Shown in pieces: positions 1 through 8,540 of a stretch of 64,000 bases of DNA (the stretch's first letter is position 1; every line of letters starts with the position of its first letter). The notes beneath the pieces were generated by a model. That model was not told the DNA's origin and ran no database searches. It saw nothing but the letters and a program-made list of their open reading frames with translations. This DNA comes from Candidatus Binatia bacterium (GTDB lineage Bacteria; Desulfobacterota; Binatia; UBA9968; JAJDTQ01). The DNA lies in NCBI GenBank assembly GCA_022824205.1, contig JAJEAI010000171.1, positions 1,193 to 65,192 on the forward strand, in the 5' to 3' direction. The position numbers were made by a program, and so were the translations under genes.

Positions 1-66
1 CGGGCGGGACCGCTGTTGAGGAGAGCGGCCGCGGCGGGCTTTCGGCAACAGGACCAGTATGAATGA
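1..66 (+). CDS. 3' end of an upstream serine protease-Sel1 repeat paralog (partial, gene continues off the window)
   Basis: nt 1-66 are homologous to the 3' tails at 1095-1162, 3253-3320 and 4236-4303. In the homologous frame it reads ...RQQDQYE* with the TGA at 64-66 overlapping the ATG (59) of the next copy. Confidence 0.55.
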   Translation, partial: RAGPLLRRAAAAGFRQQDQYE

Positions 67-1162
67 CACACGACTGCCGGCCTTGGTGCTTGCGGCTCTT
101 TTCGCTGTCGCGCTCTCCACACTCGGCTTGGCCTCACGCTCGGCCGCCGTGGACCTTGAGCATGTCCGAGGCGGGGTATGGAAGGTCTGGAACTGGACCC
201 CGGTGAAGAAAGCGAGGGAAAGTAAGTGGAAGGTCGGAACCACCTTCGCCATCGGACCGAGGTACATGGCAACCGCCCTCCACGTGCTGGCCTCGCACCG
301 CAGGAGGGGAACCCCCATTGCCGACCTCATTCTGAAATACTGGCATCGCGGCTACGTGTCGCCACCCCTCAGAATCAGGAGAGTGGCGGCAATGTCTGCC
401 GTTCATGATCTCGCCATCTTCGAGATCGGAAAGGACAACACCTATCTCCGGCTGGCAGAAGAACCGGTTCCGTCCGGTAGCAGGGGCTTGACGGGGTTCG
501 GCTATCCGGAAGCGGCGGGTAAGGGACTGCGAGTCTTGAGGCAAATCGGCAACGGAATCACCGTGGATCATCGGGTCGCCTCTCGAATCTACATGGCGGT
601 CGACATGGAGAAGCTGGGAGGGGCCAGCGGCGGACCCGTCCTGAGTTCGAAGGGGAAGGTCGTGGGTGTCCAGGTCGCCGGCGATGACAACATCTCCATC
701 GCGGTTACGATCCAACGCCTATGGGATCTCGCGGACGGCAAATCGGGCGTGATATGCCCTGCGTCCACCTCCTTCAATCACTGTTATGAACTGGCAATTG
801 AAGACATGAGAACGGTCGCTGGAAGGCACCATCCGGCGGCGGTCTACAGCCTGTGGAAACACTATGTCGATGGAGACCTCGAGGGCGGGCACGCCGACAA
901 GCTTCATTTGCTCAAGGAAGCTGCGGAACGGGGACACGTTTTGGCGCAACATAACTTGGCGGTGCGTTATGCCGAGGGAGATGTCGTTGAGAAGGATTGG
1001 CGAAAGGCTGACCTGTGGATGGAGCGGGCTGCCAAGCAGAACTTTCCGCCATCTCTCCACCAGTTGGGCAAACGGTATGAGGCCGACGGCGACTCGCGGG
1101 CCGGACCGCTGTTGAGGAGAGCGGCTGCCGCAGGCTATCTGCGAAAGGAGCAATATGAGTGA
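59..1162 (+). CDS. Secreted trypsin-like (S1) serine protease fused to C-terminal Sel1-like repeats, paralog 1 (367 aa)
   Basis: N-terminal hydrophobic signal peptide. His (TALHVLASH), Asp (HDLAIFEI) and Ser (GGASGGPV, GDSGGP-like) triad motifs are present. C-terminal Sel1/TPR-like repeats (GHVLAQHNLAVRYAEGDVV...). About 88% aa identity to the copy at 2208-3320. Confidence 0.8.
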   Translation: MNDTRLPALVLAALFAVALSTLGLASRSAAVDLEHVRGGVWKVWNWTPVKKARESKWKVGTTFAIGPRYMATALHVLASHRRRGTPIADLILKYWHRGYVSPPLRIRRVAAMSAVHDLAIFEIGKDNTYLRLAEEPVPSGSRGLTGFGYPEAAGKGLRVLRQIGNGITVDHRVASRIYMAVDMEKLGGASGGPVLSSKGKVVGVQVAGDDNISIAVTIQRLWDLADGKSGVICPASTSFNHCYELAIEDMRTVAGRHHPAAVYSLWKHYVDGDLEGGHADKLHLLKEAAERGHVLAQHNLAVRYAEGDVVEKDWRKADLWMERAAKQNFPPSLHQLGKRYEADGDSRAGPLLRRAAAAGYLRKEQYE

Positions 1163-1259
1163 TTGAGTAGAGCCATCTGTTCCTCGGCCAAGGCCTCGGT
1201 TTGTTGCTCGGTGAAGCGGGATTCCATCATGTGCTTGACGCATCTATGCGTGTCGAATG
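1163..1259 (-). pseudogene. Remnant (5' half only) of a DUF1640-like small gene; the 87-aa ORF 1135-1398 is a chimeric read-through
   Basis: About 97 bp near-identical to 4465-4561. It encodes ...AFDTHRCVKHMMESRFTEQQTEALAEEQMALLN, matching the N-terminal half of the intact copy at 4348-4590. The C-terminal half is missing and the frame runs into the antisense of the protease tail. Confidence 0.4.
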
Positions 1260-1291
1260 CGATGCCTTCACGCATGGGTTGATCTTGTCGG

Positions 1292-2104
1292 GTGAGTCCC
1301 CGTGGTAGCTGGAATGCCCTGGCCATGAAACAGGCCGTGCAAGTCGCCCGCCCGGCCGGACCATGCCATATTCCGCCCATGCGCTTCTTCAACACCACCG
1401 GGCCGGTGCAGGCGGAGAAGCACTACAGCATCCCGCCGCTGAGCCGGCTGGATCTGGAAGACGTGCTAACGCTCATTCGCGATGAGCGTTACTTCGCTCT
1501 GCTGGCGGCCCGCCAGACCGGCAAGACGACTGCCCTGCTGGCGCTTCGAGAGCTGTTGAACAGCGGCACCGAGGGCGGCTACCGGTGTGTGTACGCCAAT
1601 GTCGAGGCGGCGCAGGCGGCGCGCGAAGACACCGAACGGTCCATGCGCGCGATCCTGAGCGAATTGGCTCACTGGGCACGCTCGACGTTGGGCGACGGAA
1701 CGCTGGCCGGGATGTGGCCCGGGATTCTTGCCGAGGCCGGGCCGAACGGCGCGCTTCGCGAGGCGCTGAGCCGCTGGTCCGAGGCCGACCCGCGGCCGTT
1801 GGTGCTGCTCATCGACGAGATCGACGCGCTGGTGGGCGACACTTTGCTGTCGGTGCTGCGGCAGCTTCGGGCGGGATATGTCCAGCGCCCCCGAGGCTTT
1901 CCCCAGAGCATCATCCTGTGCGGCGTGCGTGACGTGCGCGACTACCGGATCCATTCCAGCGCCGAGAAGGAGATCATCTCGGGCGGGAGCGCGTTCAACG
2001 TCAAGGCCGAGTCGTTGCGGTTGGGGGATTTCTCCGAGGCCGAGGTGCGCGGGTTGCTGGCACATCAAGGTGCTCTGCTTGCGCCCTTCCTGGAACCGGC
2101 GTAA
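1292..2104 (+). CDS. AAA-like ATPase domain protein (RQTGKT P-loop), probably a truncated fragment
   Basis: Motif ...RYFALLAARQTGKTTALLAL... followed by a hhhhDEID Walker-B-like stretch (LVLLIDEIDAL) resembles AAA-like/archaeal-ATPase domains (PF14516-like). Only 270 aa and it is wedged between two protease paralogs; its 5' end overlaps the repeated module. Confidence 0.5.
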   Translation: MSPRGSWNALAMKQAVQVARPAGPCHIPPMRFFNTTGPVQAEKHYSIPPLSRLDLEDVLTLIRDERYFALLAARQTGKTTALLALRELLNSGTEGGYRCVYANVEAAQAAREDTERSMRAILSELAHWARSTLGDGTLAGMWPGILAEAGPNGALREALSRWSEADPRPLVLLIDEIDALVGDTLLSVLRQLRAGYVQRPRGFPQSIILCGVRDVRDYRIHSSAEKEIISGGSAFNVKAESLRLGDFSEAEVRGLLAHQGALLAPFLEPA

Positions 2105-2207
2105 CGTCTGCCGTAACGAATCCGTCCCTCCGGCAACACGCGCGCGCCGGCGATTGGTGCCGTGTTCACGCGGACACGTCCCGCCTACGATCAGGCAAAG
2201 GCATCCC

Positions 2208-3320
2208 ATGGATTCAGCCTCGAATACACGATGCGCGACCGTGATCGTCGCAGCCTTTCTCGTTGTCGCGTTCTCCCTTCTCGGCTCGGTCTCACGCTCG
2301 GCGGCCGTGGACCTGGACCATGTCAGAGGCGGTGTATGGAAGGTCTGGAACTGGACCCCGGTGAAGAAACCGGGAGAGAAGAAGTGGAGAGTGGGGACCG
2401 CCTTCGCCATCGGGCCAAGATACATGGCGACCGCCCTCCATGTGCTGGCGTCGCACCGCAGGAGAGGGACCCCCATTGCCGACCTCATTCTGAAGTACTG
2501 GCATCGCGGCTACGTGTCGCCGCCTCTCCGAATCAAGAGAGTGGCGGCAATGTCTGCCGTTCATGATCTCGCCATCTTCGAGATCGGGAAGGACAACACC
2601 TATCTGCGGCTGGCGGAAGAACCGGTTCCGTCCGGTAGCAGGGGCTTGACGGGGTTCGGCTACCCGGAAGCGGCGGGTAAGGGACTGCGAGTCTTGAGGC
2701 AACTCGGCAACGGGATCACCGTCGATCACCGGGTCGCGTCTCAAATCTACATGGCGGTCAACATGGAGAAGCTGGGCGGGGCCAGCGGCGGACCTGTTCT
2801 GGATTCGAAGGGGAAGGTTGTCGGTGTCCAGGTCCAAGGCGCCGGCAACCTGTCCATCAACGTCACGATCCAACGTCTCTGGGATCTTGCCGATGGCAAG
2901 CTGGGAGTGATTTGCCCCGAGGTTGCCTCCTTCGATCGCTGTTATGAGACGGCAATGGAAGACATGAGAGGGCGCGCGGCAAAGAGAGACCCGGTCGCCG
3001 CCTACAGACTGTGGGAGCACTATTTCGATGGCGACCTCGAGGGCGGGTACGCCGACAAGCTTCATTTGCTCAAGGAAGCTGCCGAACAGGGACACGTCCT
3101 GGCGCAGGTTAACTTGGCGTGGCTTTATGCGCAGGGAGATGTCGTTGGTAAGGACTACCGGAAGGCCGACCTGTGGATGGCGCGGGCCGCGAAGCAGGAC
3201 CATCCGCCAGCCCTGTACGACTTGGGCAAATGGTATCAAGACGACGGCGACTCGCGGGCCGGACTGTTGTTGAGGAGAGCGGCCGCGGCAGGCTATCTGC
3301 AGGAAGACCAGTATGAGTGA
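2208..3320 (+). CDS. Secreted trypsin-like (S1) serine protease fused to C-terminal Sel1-like repeats, paralog 2 (370 aa)
   Basis: The ATG at 2208 gives MDSASNTRCATVIVAAFLVVAFSLLGS... (signal peptide). The rest is collinear with paralog 1: same catalytic motifs, Sel1 repeats and conserved 3' tail ending ...GYLQEDQYE*. The track ORF 1878-3320 has a spurious 5' extension. Confidence 0.8.
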   Translation: MDSASNTRCATVIVAAFLVVAFSLLGSVSRSAAVDLDHVRGGVWKVWNWTPVKKPGEKKWRVGTAFAIGPRYMATALHVLASHRRRGTPIADLILKYWHRGYVSPPLRIKRVAAMSAVHDLAIFEIGKDNTYLRLAEEPVPSGSRGLTGFGYPEAAGKGLRVLRQLGNGITVDHRVASQIYMAVNMEKLGGASGGPVLDSKGKVVGVQVQGAGNLSINVTIQRLWDLADGKLGVICPEVASFDRCYETAMEDMRGRAAKRDPVAAYRLWEHYFDGDLEGGYADKLHLLKEAAEQGHVLAQVNLAWLYAQGDVVGKDYRKADLWMARAAKQDHPPALYDLGKWYQDDGDSRAGLLLRRAAAAGYLQEDQYE

Positions 3321-3429
3321 ACGCAACCGGAGAGATTCCGTTCCAGGCAGGCTGGCAGGAACCAATTGTCGGAGGCTTGGCGACGCCCATTTCCGACCTT
3401 ATGTCCAAGTACGGGCACCCCAGCCCTCG

Positions 3430-3553
3430 GGATCAAGCCCGGCTCGAAACTACCTTGCGTCCCTCCCGAAACCGGCCCAACATCAACACGTAGACTTGGC
3501 GACCCGTCGGCGCCTTTATTGCCATCGCCGGCTTGGTTGTTGTCATCACCTGA
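3430..3553 (+). pseudogene. Decayed remnant of a DUF1640-like gene C-terminus (in-frame TAG)
   Basis: The plus-strand frame reads ...PNINT*TWRPVGAFIAIAGLVVVIT*. Compare the intact copy at 5103-5336: ...AAINTQTWRLIGAAIAIAGLAVAITRLL*. The CAG codon is replaced by TAG. Confidence 0.3.
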
Positions 3554-3614
3554 GTGCTCCGAGAGCCCTGTCCCCGGTAAACGAACTTGACGGGTTGCCG
3601 CACAGGAGAGCGAG

Positions 3615-3845
3615 ATGGATAGAATAGCTGTCGATCCACGGGTTCACTTCGGCAAGCCGTGTGTTGCCGGCACGCGCATCGCGGTACAGGACGTCCTGGA
3701 ACTTGTCGACGAGGAGATCCCTTTCGTTCAGATCATTCGTGATTACTATCCCGACCTCACGACCGAGGACATCCATGCGTGCATTCGGTACGCAATTGCC
3801 TTGGTCGGAGCAGAAGGCATCCACCTACGCACGACGTCCGCCTGA
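3615..3845 (+). CDS. DUF433 family protein (antitoxin-like partner of DUF5615)
   Basis: MDRIAVDPRVHFGKPCVAGTRIAV... is typical DUF433. The stop overlaps or abuts the ATG of the next gene. Confidence 0.8.
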   Translation: MDRIAVDPRVHFGKPCVAGTRIAVQDVLELVDEEIPFVQIIRDYYPDLTTEDIHACIRYAIALVGAEGIHLRTTSA

Positions 3846-4208
3846 ATGAGATTTCTGCTCGACCAGGACGTGTACGCAGCCACGGCCCGGCATCCGGAGA
3901 GTCTTGGACACGATGTCGTTCGTGCATCCGAAATCGGTCTCTCCCGCGCCACGGACGAAACGTTGCTTGAGGTCGCTTGTGAAGACGAAAGGGTGTTCGT
4001 TACTCGTGACAGAGACTTCGGGCGCATCGTGTTCCTGAATCGACAGCATGGGGCGGTTCTATACTTGCGTATGCTCCCCTCAACACAAGACGCCGTTCAC
4101 CGGGAACTTGACGCAGTACTGCAAACGTATGGGACAGACGAGTTGGCGAAGGCATTTGTCGTCGTCGAACCAGGTGGTCACAGGCTCAGACGACTGCCCT
4201 CGGGGTGA
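3846..4208 (+). CDS. DUF5615 family (PIN-like / Mut7-C-like) putative toxin
   Basis: MRFLLDQDV..., 120 aa, immediately downstream of and coupled to DUF433: a common two-gene arrangement. Confidence 0.7.
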   Translation: MRFLLDQDVYAATARHPESLGHDVVRASEIGLSRATDETLLEVACEDERVFVTRDRDFGRIVFLNRQHGAVLYLRMLPSTQDAVHRELDAVLQTYGTDELAKAFVVVEPGGHRLRRLPSG

Positions 4209-4235
4209 TCGGCCAGCCCGCGCCGAGAACCGTTT

Positions 4236-4303
4236 CGCGGGCCGGACCGTTGTTGAGGAGAGCGGCTGCGGCAGGCTATCTGCGGAAGGATCAGTATGAG
4301 TGA
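4236..4303 (+). repeat. Orphan copy of the conserved protease-Sel1 3' tail (encodes RAGPLLRRAAAAGYLRKDQYE*), remnant of a deleted paralog
   Basis: Near-identical to 1095-1162 and 3253-3320. Not part of any long ORF here; in a different frame from the track ORF 4048-4299. Confidence 0.6.
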
Positions 4304-4347
4304 ACGCAGCCGGGGAGCTTCTGTCCCGCACCGACGCTGCGAGTGCG

Positions 4348-4590
4348 CTACAACAGCTTGACCAAGGTGACGACCAAGCCTCCTTGGGCGATCAACGCCC
4401 CCAGGGTCCACTTCAGTAGATCTGCCTTGACGGCCTCGATGTCCGCCTTGGTCGCCAAGTTGCCATTGAGTAGAGCCATCTGTTCCTCGGCCAAGGCTTC
4501 GGCCTGTTGCTCGGTGAAGCCGGATTCCGTCATGTGCTTGACGAATCTATGCGTGTCGAATGCGGCGTGAGTATCGAGGAGGAGCCTCAC
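4348..4590 (-). CDS. DUF1640-like small protein with C-terminal hydrophobic anchor (80 aa), intact copy
   Basis: MRLLLDTHAAFDTHRFVKHMTESGFTEQQAEALAEEQMALLNGNLATKADIEAVKADLLKWTLGALIAQGGLVVTLVKLL. Same architecture as the 5103-5336 copy (FDT..GF..QAEA..A...LATKADL...W..G....GL.V....LL). Confidence 0.55.
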   Translation of the reverse strand: MRLLLDTHAAFDTHRFVKHMTESGFTEQQAEALAEEQMALLNGNLATKADIEAVKADLLKWTLGALIAQGGLVVTLVKLL

Positions 4591-4596
4591 TTCGGC

Positions 4597-4827
4597 TCAA
4601 CCCTCCCAAGCCGCCAGTTCGTCCTCCGGCAGTGGCTCCAGGATGCTGTCGTCGACGGCGACTTGCCCCTTCATGGCACCGAAGCGTCGCTTGCCGGGTG
4701 ACTTGCAGCGAACAAGCCGTGCGACGGGTTGGCCCCGACGGGCGATCACCACATCTTCCCCCGCCTCGACTTGGGCCAGAAGGCGGGAGAGCTGAGTTTT
4801 CGCTTGATGGACGTTGACGACGGGCAT
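4597..4827 (-). CDS. Phd/YefM-family type II antitoxin (no cognate toxin recognisable)
   Basis: MPVVNVHQAKTQLSRLLAQVEAGEDVVIARRGQPVARLV... is the classic Phd/YefM N-terminus. The downstream gene is the DUF1640-like protein rather than a PIN/Doc/RelE toxin. Confidence 0.8.
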   Translation of the reverse strand: MPVVNVHQAKTQLSRLLAQVEAGEDVVIARRGQPVARLVRCKSPGKRRFGAMKGQVAVDDSILEPLPEDELAAWEG

Positions 4828-5102
4828 GACCTTGGATCTCCTAAGGACAGACTTGGCTAAGAGTATGATTAAGCGCTGAAAACAATCAAGGCCTCGCCGG
4901 GGGTCGAGATCGAGGTGTGGGGCATGTGAGCGGGCACGGCGCCTCGGCGGATCGCCATGACAGGCATCTCAAGACTTCAGCCGCAGACAAACGGTGGGGC
5001 GGCATCGAGAGGGAATACGGCCTGGGGCGGTGGCGTACGGCTTTAACACCTTCGAGGTCATCCATCTTGCGCCCATCCCGAAACCAGCGTAACATTCTCA
5101 AC

Positions 5103-5336
5103 GTGGACGTCGATGTCGACACCGTGGAGATCTCGCGCGAACTGACCCAAGCCGGCGTTGAACGCGATCAAGCGGATGCGATTGCCAGCGCAATGCGTAG
5201 GGTCGCTCATGGTAGCCGCGAGGATTTGGTGACAAAAGCCGACCTGGAGGCGGCGATCAACACGCAGACTTGGCGGTTGATAGGTGCCGCGATTGCGATA
5301 GCGGGCCTCGCCGTCGCCATCACCCGCCTGCTTTGA
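5103..5336 (+). CDS. DUF1640-like small protein with C-terminal hydrophobic anchor; putative GTG start
   Basis: (M)DVDVDTVEISRELTQAGVERDQADAIASAMRR...LVTKADLEAAINTQTWRLIGAAIAIAGLAVAITRLL. The track ORF 4917-5336 probably over-extends at the 5' end. Confidence 0.5.
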   Translation: MDVDVDTVEISRELTQAGVERDQADAIASAMRRVAHGSREDLVTKADLEAAINTQTWRLIGAAIAIAGLAVAITRLL

Positions 5337-5378
5337 CAACGTCAACCCTGAACTCGCCCCGTCTCACCTCGCCCCATA

Positions 5379-6251
5379 TCACCGAATCGCCGTAATCATC
5401 ACCACCCCCAGCACGATCAGCCCCGCGGCCACCACCTTGCGTGACGTGATGACCTCCACGTTCCGGAGGAATATCGCCGACAGCACCAGGCTGTAGAGCG
5501 GGCTCAGGCTGGCCAGCGGGGCGACGATGACGACGTCCGACAAGTGCAGGGACATGAAGATGCTGGCGACGCTGAGGGTCACGGCGAAGCCGGCGAGGAG
5601 GAACCAGCCCAGGGCGCGGCGGTGGAAGCGCACCATGGACCAGTTGCGCGAGACGGTCAGGGAAACGGCGATGGCGACGAGGGAGGTGCCGGTGGTGGTG
5701 GCGGCGCCGAGGATGGGGAGGCTGATGCCGGCGAGGCCGATCTTGCGGATGACCTGGGTGGAGCCGGCGACGAAGGCGCTGAGAAGGGGCAGGGCCACCA
5801 GGATGTTGAGCTTCATCCATGCGCCGGTCTTTCCCTCGCTCAGGCTCAGGAGCGTGATCCCGACCACCACGAGGGCGGTGCCCGCGCCCACGGCCGGGGT
5901 GAGCTGCTCGCCGAGCACGGCGATGGCCAGGAGCGACGAGAAGAGAGGCGTGGTGGCGCGGAGGGGCGCGGTGACGGCCACGCCCACTTTCTCCACGCTC
6001 AGATACGCGAGGAAGCGCGTGCCGCCGGGCTGGATCAGGCCCACCAGCACGAAGATCAGGACCTCGGGACGGAGGATCTCGTCCCACGGCAGCACCGCCA
6101 GGACGAAGCTCCAGAAGCTCAGCACGTTGATGGCGAGGGAGAGGACGGTGGCGCTGATGGGATTGCCGTGGGCCAATCCCTTCTTGAGGAAGATCAGGTT
6201 GATGGCGGTGAAGAGCCCGCAGGCGAGCGCGAAGGCTTCGGCCGGGATCAC
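5379..6251 (-). CDS. EamA/DMT-family transporter
   Basis: 290 aa, about 10 TM helices, duplicated EamA-like halves. Confidence 0.8.
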   Translation of the reverse strand: MIPAEAFALACGLFTAINLIFLKKGLAHGNPISATVLSLAINVLSFWSFVLAVLPWDEILRPEVLIFVLVGLIQPGGTRFLAYLSVEKVGVAVTAPLRATTPLFSSLLAIAVLGEQLTPAVGAGTALVVVGITLLSLSEGKTGAWMKLNILVALPLLSAFVAGSTQVIRKIGLAGISLPILGAATTTGTSLVAIAVSLTVSRNWSMVRFHRRALGWFLLAGFAVTLSVASIFMSLHLSDVVIVAPLASLSPLYSLVLSAIFLRNVEVITSRKVVAAGLIVLGVVMITAIR

Positions 6252-6294
6252 GTGAGGAAGGAGAAGAAAACGGTATTCGTGGTCGTGGCGGTCA

Positions 6295-7286
6295 TCAGAA
6301 CCGGATCACGGAGGCGCCCCAGGCGAAGCCCGCGCCGAAGGCGTTCAGCAGCACGATGTCCCCCTCGGCGATGCGCCCCGCGCGCCGCACCTCGTCCAGC
6401 GCCACGGGCACGGACGCGGCGGACGTGTTGCCGTACTTGTCCAGGTTGACGACGACCTTTTCCATGGGAATTTCGAGGCGCGCTGCCAGGGCGGCGATGA
6501 TCCGGCGATTGGCCTGATGCGGCACCACCAGGGAGACGTCCTCCACGCCCAGACCGGCCTCGGCGAGCACTCGCCGGCTGATGTCTTCCATGGACCGGAC
6601 GGCCACCTTGAAGACTTCCTTGCCGTTCATGAAGATGGAGTGCTCGCGGTTCTCCACCGTCTCCCGCGTGGCCGGCTTCTTGGTGCCTCCCGCACGGATG
6701 TAAAGCGTCTCGGCGTAGGAACCGTCGGTCTGGAGCCGGGTGCTGAGGATGCCCTGGTCGCCGTTTTCGCCGGGCCCCAGCACCGCGGCGCCGGCGGCGT
6801 CGCCGAACAGGATGCAGGTGCTGCGGTCCTGCCAGTCGAGGTAGCGGCTGAGCACGTCGCTGCCCACCACCAGGGCTTTGCCGATGCGGCCGGAACGGAT
6901 GAACAGATCGGCCACCGAAAGCGCGTTGAGAAAGCCCGAGCAGGCCGCGTTCACGTCGAACGAGAACACTTCCTTGGCGCCGAGCTTGGCTTCGAGGACG
7001 CAGCCCAGGCTGGGGAACTGGTAGTCCGGCGTGCACGTGCCCGCGATGATGGCGTCCAGTTCGCCGACGTCGAGGCCGGCGTCCTCCAGTGCCCGCTCCG
7101 AGGCGAGCAGCGCCAGGTCCGAGGTGGCCTTGCTGTCCTCCAGCACACGCCGCTCCTTGATGCCCGTGCGGGTGGTGATCCATTCGTCGCTGGTGTCGAC
7201 GATCTTGGCCAGGTCGTCGTTGGTGACGACCTGGGAGGGAACGGCGGAACCCGTGCCCAGTATGACGCTGCGCGGTGCTGTCTGTG

Positions 7287-7290
<4 letters not shown>
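6295..7290 (-). CDS. fabH: 3-oxoacyl-ACP synthase III
   Basis: [44 protein letters not shown]...AACSGF...HQAN.. is the canonical FabH. 4-bp overlap with fabF. Confidence 0.9.

Positions 7291-8540
<1,250 letters not shown>

Follow-up and report, generated by a model that had tools for sequence, protein, structure and literature searches.

Bacterial proteins of the DUF1640 family (PF07798) are prokaryotic relatives of the mitochondrial proteins MCUR1 and CCDC90B, and we know of no function for the bacterial members, the minimal form of 76-77 amino acids (aa) included. In this study we investigated four DUF1640-type sequences that lie near the 3' tails of secreted protease genes in a 64-kb stretch of DNA from a Candidatus Binatia bacterium (the window, meaning the whole stretch that was analysed). 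The window is part of a metagenome scaffold of 78.9 kb (KELL22-1 scaffold_377, here L001), and its position 1 corresponds to L001 position 9610. An earlier reading, made from the sequence only, had described a secreted protease gene that consistently comes with a small membrane-anchored protein and had likened the arrangement to effector/immunity or cassette organisation. We consider it probable that the arrangement is instead debris, produced by segmental duplication and several deletions in a decaying accessory (variable) island of lower guanine-cytosine (GC) content, and that no conserved system of protease and partner exists. For comparison we used 10 further loci with 16 genes of the same trypsin-like/Sel1 protease family, among them L002, L007, L008, L021, L023 and the pair L004 and L005, both from one complete genome.

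Among the described systems that come close to what is seen in the window are two kinds of gene arrays. Like the effector/immunity cassettes of polymorphic toxins, it has a gene for a secreted enzyme, nearby genes for small membrane proteins and orphan 3' fragments. Unlike in such cassettes, the adjacency is not conserved (one of the 10 related loci has a DUF1640 gene, and not an adjacent one), the small genes are convergent or distant where they should be directly downstream, co-oriented and intact, the orphan tail is not accompanied by an intact small gene of its lineage, and the protease carries a signal peptide while no delivery domain was detected. The window is also like the tandem paralogue arrays of accessory islands, which are shaped by unequal recombination and illegitimate deletion: tandem proteases with differing junctions are found in the window, L002, L008 and L021, and an insertion sequence (IS) element, integrase fragments, toxin-antitoxin modules and a GC dip accompany them. 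Nothing but the density of the delimited junctions, of which about 5.7 kb hold seven or more, sets the window apart from typical arrays of this kind. This density, together with the duplicated multi-gene segments described below, bears out the repeated recombination between modules that had been proposed from the sequence.

Protease tails and DUF1640-type sequences

The last 66 nucleotides (nt) of the protease gene are present four times in the window, at 1-66, 1097-1162, 3255-3320 and 4238-4303. The second to fourth of these tails have 83-85% identity to the one at 1-66 (self-BLAST, E-values 1e-13 to 1e-28), and tail 1 (1097-1162) and tail 4 (4238-4303) are equal at 61 of 66 positions. Full genes stand behind only two of them, protease 1 (59-1162, plus strand; tail 1, 1094-1162) and protease 2 (2208-3320, plus strand; tail 2, 3252-3320), with a mutual DNA identity of 85%. 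The tail at 1-66 (plus strand) belongs to copy 0, a gene that begins upstream of the window and has an internal deletion; in L001 9386-9672 (window -224 to 63) aa 1-49 are joined to aa 326-370, codons 50-325 are gone, and its stop codon and the start of protease 1 overlap. The orphan tail (4235-4327, plus strand) consists of the last 22 codons and the stop (4235-4303), followed by 24 nt of a downstream frame, and the rest of that copy is gone.

Near these tails four DUF1640-type sequences were found in both orientations, a similarity far beyond chance by self-BLAST and Pfam, and one that is not limited to the protease tail since the DUF1640 parts match too. Two of them, called DUF_A here, are on the minus strand. 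Remnant 1 (1162-1275) is a 5' piece of 38 codons (MREGIAFDTHRC...ALLN) that abuts the stop of protease 1. Its N-terminus MREGIAFDTHR is the canonical start of a widespread 76-aa family (MSEAIAFDTHRFVK...), and positions 1162-1261 match 4465-4564 with 94% identity over 100 nt (E-value 1e-39). The 5'-half remnant described earlier at 1163-1259 is real, but it runs from 1162 to its own ATG at 1275. An Arg takes the place of a family-invariant Gly in remnant 1, which is consistent with decay.

The second DUF_A sequence (4348-4590, minus strand) had been taken for an intact copy. It does match PF07798, with 39.4 bits (E-value 7e-10) above the gathering cut-off of 33.5 bits, and it retains the head motif, LATKAD and the C-terminal membrane segment; it is not intact, as it reads as vapC codons 1-9 (4590-4565, VRLLLDTHA) followed by DUF1640 codons 6-76 (4564-4348). 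The public gene call for it has 61 aa, starting at Met20. Exact-sequence searches with this 80-aa ORF and with protease 1 gave no match, as other starts are used in the public gene calls. A phd/yefM-type antitoxin gene (4597-4827, minus strand) lies 6 nt upstream and scores 38.3 bits with PF02604 (cut-off 29.8) and 30 bits with TIGR01552 (cut-off 20.8). On a Burkholderia plasmid the VapC after a homologous phd begins MRLLLDTHIYLW, that is, with MRLLLDTHA. The VRLLLDTHA start 6 nt after phd matches this VapC N-terminus, and the open reading frame (ORF) is thus a vapC(1-9)::DUF1640(6-76) fusion. The arrangement is like a phd/yefM-vapC type II operon in that the phd domain is present and the ORF behind it begins, after 6 nt, with the N-terminal VapC residues MRLLLDTH. 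It is unlike such an operon directly downstream of phd, where no match to the PIN toxin domain was found and DUF1640 follows after nine vapC-like codons. A similar loss is known from a Bosea plasmid, on which a decayed vapC (VRLLLDTH...) stands at the same place behind phd.

Locus 1 and locus 4 had been described as equal except for a clean deletion of about 150 bp (4304-4452) in the former. Pairwise alignment of 1085-1300 with 4226-4610 delimited this gap at 162 nt (4304-4465; one A is ambiguous), between shared blocks of 69 nt and 100 nt with 93-94% identity, and the outer flanks are unrelated on either side. The gap therefore exists, but neither locus derives from the other: locus 1 has a 5' end that is absent from locus 4, and locus 4 has a 3' half that is absent from locus 1. 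Such complementary losses indicate that both came from an intact ancestor.

The other two sequences are of a second type, DUF_B, and lie on the plus strand. DUF_B itself (5103-5336) is an intact, divergent DUF1640-like gene of 77 aa with LVTKAD and a C-terminal membrane segment, and it is the sole fully native DUF1640 copy in the window. Three of the four DUF1640 sequences lie within 0-164 nt of a tail, directly downstream as had been stated for all of them. DUF_B is 800 nt away from tail 4, beyond DUF_A and phd, and adjoins no tail. In L024, a 3.4-kb contig of another assembly, an orthologue with 92-94% identity is found next to EamA-FabH-FabF, and that contig has no protease. Since these are the neighbours of DUF_B in the window as well, DUF_B is a resident gene. 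Remnant 3 (3484-3553; INT, a stop, TWRPVGAFIAIAGLVVVIT and a further stop) is a DUF_B-type C-terminal piece. Its region 3482-3558 has 70% identity to 5256-5332 (E-value 7e-4), and a TAG stands at 3491-3493 where DUF_B has CAG. The decayed remnant with an in-frame TAG had been noted correctly, with a start at about 3430 that proved too far upstream. A still longer remnant reaching back to 3380, suggested by tblastn extension, was rejected, because positions 3321-3454 hold another sequence, which is 95% conserved after the orthologous L002 protease and then diverges. Only 3484-3553 is therefore derived from DUF1640.

For the family assignment of the remaining sequences the Pfam profile was less decisive than for the chimera. 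DUF_B (24.6 bits, E-value 2.5e-5) and remnant 1 (15 bits, in line with its being a fragment) stayed below the cut-off of PF07798. A word-index search with DUF_B returned a single relative, and an exhaustive HMMER search placed it in the family with 87 representatives, mostly of 70-90 aa, that align end to end; the divergent intact copy thus stands as originally described, on its full-length alignment. PF07798 was matched by 26 of 28 aligned small relatives (about 75-85 aa). A profile of the small relatives, including both window proteins, found PDB entry 6h9m (CCDC90B head-GCN4) with an E-value of 5.5e-7 over FDT..G...QAE. For DUF1640 a beta-layer motif, [aliphatic]-A-T-K-[polar]-[D/E], has been reported at the start of the stalk (PMC4786415), and in the translations it reads LATKAD in DUF_A and LVTKAD in DUF_B. 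By Kyte-Doolittle analysis, the C-terminal membrane segment expected from the sequence was found in both DUF_A and DUF_B, with best 17-residue means of 1.79 (residues 64-80) and 2.04 (residues 60-76); remnant 1 reaches 0.23 and has no C-terminal hydrophobic segment. The window proteins thus share with the DUF1640/CCDC90-like family the N-terminal head motif FDTxxFVxxLxxxGFxxxQAEA, the beta-layer motif and the C-terminal membrane segment. They are unlike typical members in being minimal (76-77 aa) with almost no coiled-coil stalk; moreover, one copy has its first five codons swapped for nine vapC codons and two copies are fragments. No defence-system model of PADLOC matched either DUF1640 protein, and the weak matches of the protease reflect generic similarity of trypsin domains. 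Among the PHROGs, DUF1640 corresponded only to phrog_17872, a family of unknown function.

DUF1640 and protease genes in related loci

To follow the proposed pairing beyond the window, the 10 loci with their 16 protease genes were searched by tblastn with several DUF1640 queries. A DUF1640 gene was found in L007 only, a locus from a sister sample. It is divergent and not adjacent to the protease, being located 1.4 kb upstream with a helicase fragment in between. No DUF1640 was detected by tblastn near the other 15 of the 16 protease genes, which include the intact tandem arrays of L002, L008 and L021, and none at either protease locus of the complete genome (L004, L005). The claim of a consistent pairing, and with it the comparison to effector/immunity or cassette systems, finds no support in this survey.

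Functional pairing would mean that DUF1640 acts as a membrane-anchored immunity protein, an anchor or a regulator of the secreted protease and is inherited with it as a cassette. It would account for the DUF1640 sequences 0-164 nt from three of the four window tails, for the L007 gene 1.4 kb from its protease and for the predicted tail anchoring of the DUF1640 proteins in the membrane. Against this, 15 of the 16 related proteases manage without a DUF1640 nearby, and orientation and distance vary at each site: loci 1 and 4 are convergent, locus 2 has a stop-containing fragment 164 nt off, and all are damaged. Purifying selection acts on the intact proteases (dN/dS, the ratio of nonsynonymous to synonymous substitution rates, is 0.2-0.3 overall and 0.31 for protease 1 versus protease 2), yet the DUF1640 sequences at the tails in the window are all truncated, chimeric or interrupted by a stop. 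Homologues of DUF_A and DUF_B had no protease neighbour in any of the contexts examined elsewhere. The close 76-aa DUF_A homologues adjoin guaB/guaA, SufBD/M17 peptidase, GmrSD or AAA_14-DUF4143 ATPases, and others are on a phage-plasmid, a conjugative plasmid and a Methylomonas plasmid. We regard functional pairing as largely refuted by the comparative survey and as very unlikely.

In other bacteria (L011-L020, L029-L031) the 76-aa DUF1640 gene was observed at a fixed spot beside guaB/guaA. The slot bordering it varies by strain and holds GmrSD, an unknown 314-aa protein or an AAA_14-DUF4143 ATPase. This slot looks like a defence or accessory hotspot.

Proposed duplicated segments and deletion junctions

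A 30-nt element (CTTGCGCC..GGAACCGGCGTAACGT, consensus CTTGCRCC..TCC.GRAACCRGC..AAC.T) is present in three copies in the 64-kb window, where 0 are expected by chance. The copy at 2078-2107 (plus strand) heads the upstream region of protease 2, a DUF_B-type variant at 3454-3483 (plus strand) directly precedes remnant 3, and the copy at 5066-5095 (plus strand) ends 7 nt before the start of DUF_B. Beyond the window it was found at L001 9256-9283, before copy 0, at L002 4182-4209, between the ATPase stop and the first protease, and at L024 34-61, where it precedes the DUF_B orthologue; the distance from element to DUF_B start is 7-12 nt in two organisms. As a promoter (TTGCGC-N17-TAACNT) the element scores 7/12 and was not picked by a consensus scan. 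As a guess, it could be a weak promoter that gives a nearly leaderless DUF_B mRNA. Readings as a sigma-54 or an extracytoplasmic function (ECF)-type promoter were dropped by eye, as spacing and motifs do not fit.

Two parts of a broken AAA ATPase gene lie between these elements and the DUF_A sequences. The 5' portion (1379-2067, plus strand), about 230 of about 420 codons, is divergent with respect to remnant 1, and its end is joined to the 30-nt element; it has 92% identity to L002 3035-3561, and the match ends at 2067. The detached 3' end (4903-4940, plus strand; ..VEIEVWGM and stop) has 92% identity to L002 4111-4149. An ATPase part is thus found to the right of both DUF_A sequences, each followed by the 30-nt element (the 3' end by the one at 5066), and the intact order ATPase-element-protease is present in L002, matching the window pieces. 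Since both DUF_A sequences stand in the order tail, DUF_A (minus), ATPase part (plus), element and next gene, a multi-gene unit appears to have been duplicated and its copies trimmed differently.

In the explanation that we favour, multi-gene segments would have been duplicated, one of them comprising protease tail, DUF_A (minus), AAA ATPase (plus), the 30-nt element and the next gene, and a second one comprising the 30-nt element and DUF_B. Each copy of a segment would later have been trimmed by a deletion of its own. The products would be the 5' DUF1640 stub on the protease stop, the orphan tail, the stop-containing DUF_B tail, the split ATPase gene and the vapC'::DUF1640 chimera behind phd. 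Remnant 3, for example, corresponds to the 30-nt element plus DUF_B minus about 160 nt, with a junction microhomology of 2 nt (AT); at the three junctions measured the microhomology was 1-2 nt. The apparent travelling together of tail and DUF1640 would then reflect a single ancestral adjacency copied by duplication, and not a functional pairing. The repeats, the junctions, the family membership, the absence of pairing in relatives and the synteny of DUF_B were observed directly, and from them we infer the order of events and the ancestral unit.

One could also suppose that either the protease tail or the 30-nt element serves as a site of recombination, and that the genes are site-specific cassettes of an integron-like or similar kind. 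The element lies on both sides of the protease 2 segment (2078, 3454) as well as before DUF_B, and the 93-nt tail repeat flanks 3345-4234, as such cassettes would suggest. Typical integron cassettes are co-oriented, flanked by structured attC sites and accompanied by an integron integrase. In the 20.8 kb around the island no called gene has an integrase or recombinase domain; inverted repeats are absent from the element and the tails, save for a 23-nt stretch of tail 1 that is 74% complementary to tail 4; and the genes are in both orientations. Furthermore, the junction positions differ everywhere, with 1-2 nt in common, and in another organism the element is kept upstream of DUF_B as ordinary upstream sequence. 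Neither many independent insertions at one exact element position nor a recombinase acting on the element was seen. We give this explanation the least credence of those considered.

Mis-joins between paralogous repeats during metagenome assembly could in principle mimic such a locus, as the source is a metagenome scaffold and the region is rich in repeats. De Bruijn or overlap assemblers could not join sequences that have only 1-2 nt in common at the junctions, and with differences of 6-30% the repeats are not collapsed copies. Two junction types recur in L002, an independent assembly: the fusion that joins copies 0 and 1 head to tail (CAGTATGA[A/G]TGACACACGAC), which is found there between copies A and B, and the joining of the element to the 3' end of the ATPase gene. 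An assembly artefact is hence improbable in our view.

Several points weigh against duplication and decay as the whole explanation. The chimera keeps all conserved residues of the family and an operon position, and it could be expressed and functional and not debris. Two loci, the window and L007, have DUF1640 at no more than 1.5 kb from a protease, and the topology DUF1640 (minus), ATPase or helicase (plus), protease (plus) common to them exceeds what would be expected by chance for unlinked genes; the two are from sister samples, and shared ancestry may be the cause. The order of events rests on one metagenome scaffold, and the intact ancestral unit was found in no relative among the loci compared. 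In another reading the chimera would be an expressed, selected gene captured behind phd, and DUF1640 (minus), ATPase (plus) and protease (plus) would form a functional mobile-island module that recurs in the window and L007 and in which the membrane protein works with the protease. We think there is little chance that this is so, and segmental duplication followed by deletions stays the explanation that we prefer.

The island, its proteases and its surroundings

The island spans the first 5.3 kb of the window and about 0.4 kb upstream of it. It is bounded on the left by a DUF1989 gene upstream of the window and on the right by EamA-FabH-FabF at 5379-8540, and its GC content is 57-62%, compared with 66-70% in the flanks. 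Its content is of four kinds: lineage-specific secreted protease paralogues in tandem, the broken AAA ATPase gene, two toxin-antitoxin modules and two small tail-anchored DUF1640 lineages. In L002, next to an array of three proteases, the ATPase gene is split into several frames, and a 393-aa ORF (1669-2850), read as an IS4/IS5-type transposase from sequence alone, lies inside the 5' part of this pseudogene. An integrase fragment was found near the protease in L007 and two integrases beside the protease in L023. The IS-type ORF of L002 and the L023 integrases indicate that the protease arrays sit in accessory, decaying regions. An Rfam scan of positions 1-6000 returned no RNA family, and no tRNA gene that could mark an integration site was found in L001, L002, L007 or L023.

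Protease 1 encodes a trypsin-like peptidase with Sel1-like repeats, a signal peptide and intact catalytic motifs, and protease 2, which has a signal peptide as well, shows 95% DNA identity to copy C of L002. In both, the motifs ALHV, DLAIFE and GASGGP are present and Trypsin_2 matches with 42-44 bits (cut-off 27.6); the Sel1 score of 21-25 bits is under the cut-off of 30.7. A homologue with 71% identity is named 'bifunctional trypsin-like peptidase domain-containing/SEL1-like repeat protein' by NCBI, and several homologues are called as 256-aa products that start at an internal Met. A search of a collection of 5.8 billion proteins returned 22 matches, about 17 of them close, and the genes often occur as two to three tandem paralogues per contig. 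The nearest protease loci are from metagenome-assembled genomes labelled Candidatus Binatia (a complete 4.77-Mb chromosome), Chromatiales, Syntrophobacterales and Bryobacter-like.

Downstream of protease 2 an unnamed reading frame starts (3317-3454, plus strand; ATGAGTGA), whose GTG overlaps the protease stop and which is cut off at 3454. It is 95% conserved in L002 7691-7827 (frame region 7691-7880), with differences that are mostly synonymous by eye, and its first 24 nt are repeated at 4304-4327 after the orphan tail. The resulting direct repeats, each 93 nt long and containing the protease tail (3252-3344 and 4235-4327), flank an intact two-gene module (3615-4208, plus strand) that is toxin-antitoxin-like and consists of DUF433 (3615-3845; 71 bits) and DUF5615/PIN-like, Mut7-C (3846-4208; 78 bits). 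Just left of the island, about 1.1 kb from the window, about 8.5 tandem copies of the 20-nt unit TCATTCCCGCCTCCCTTCCG were observed at L001 8280-8478; they have a phosphoribosyltransferase-like gene on one side and the DUF1989 gene on the other.

The locus preserves, in compact form, the traces of deletions, with a microhomology of 1-2 nt at the three junctions measured, and of gene fusion, including a clean vapC'::DUF1640 chimera. The protease family is narrow, with about 20 relatives returned from the protein collection, and tends towards tandem arrays in accessory regions. For the interpretation of such regions it is a caution that an adjacency repeated inside one locus can stem from segmental duplication and decay, and is on its own no indication of a functional gene pair.

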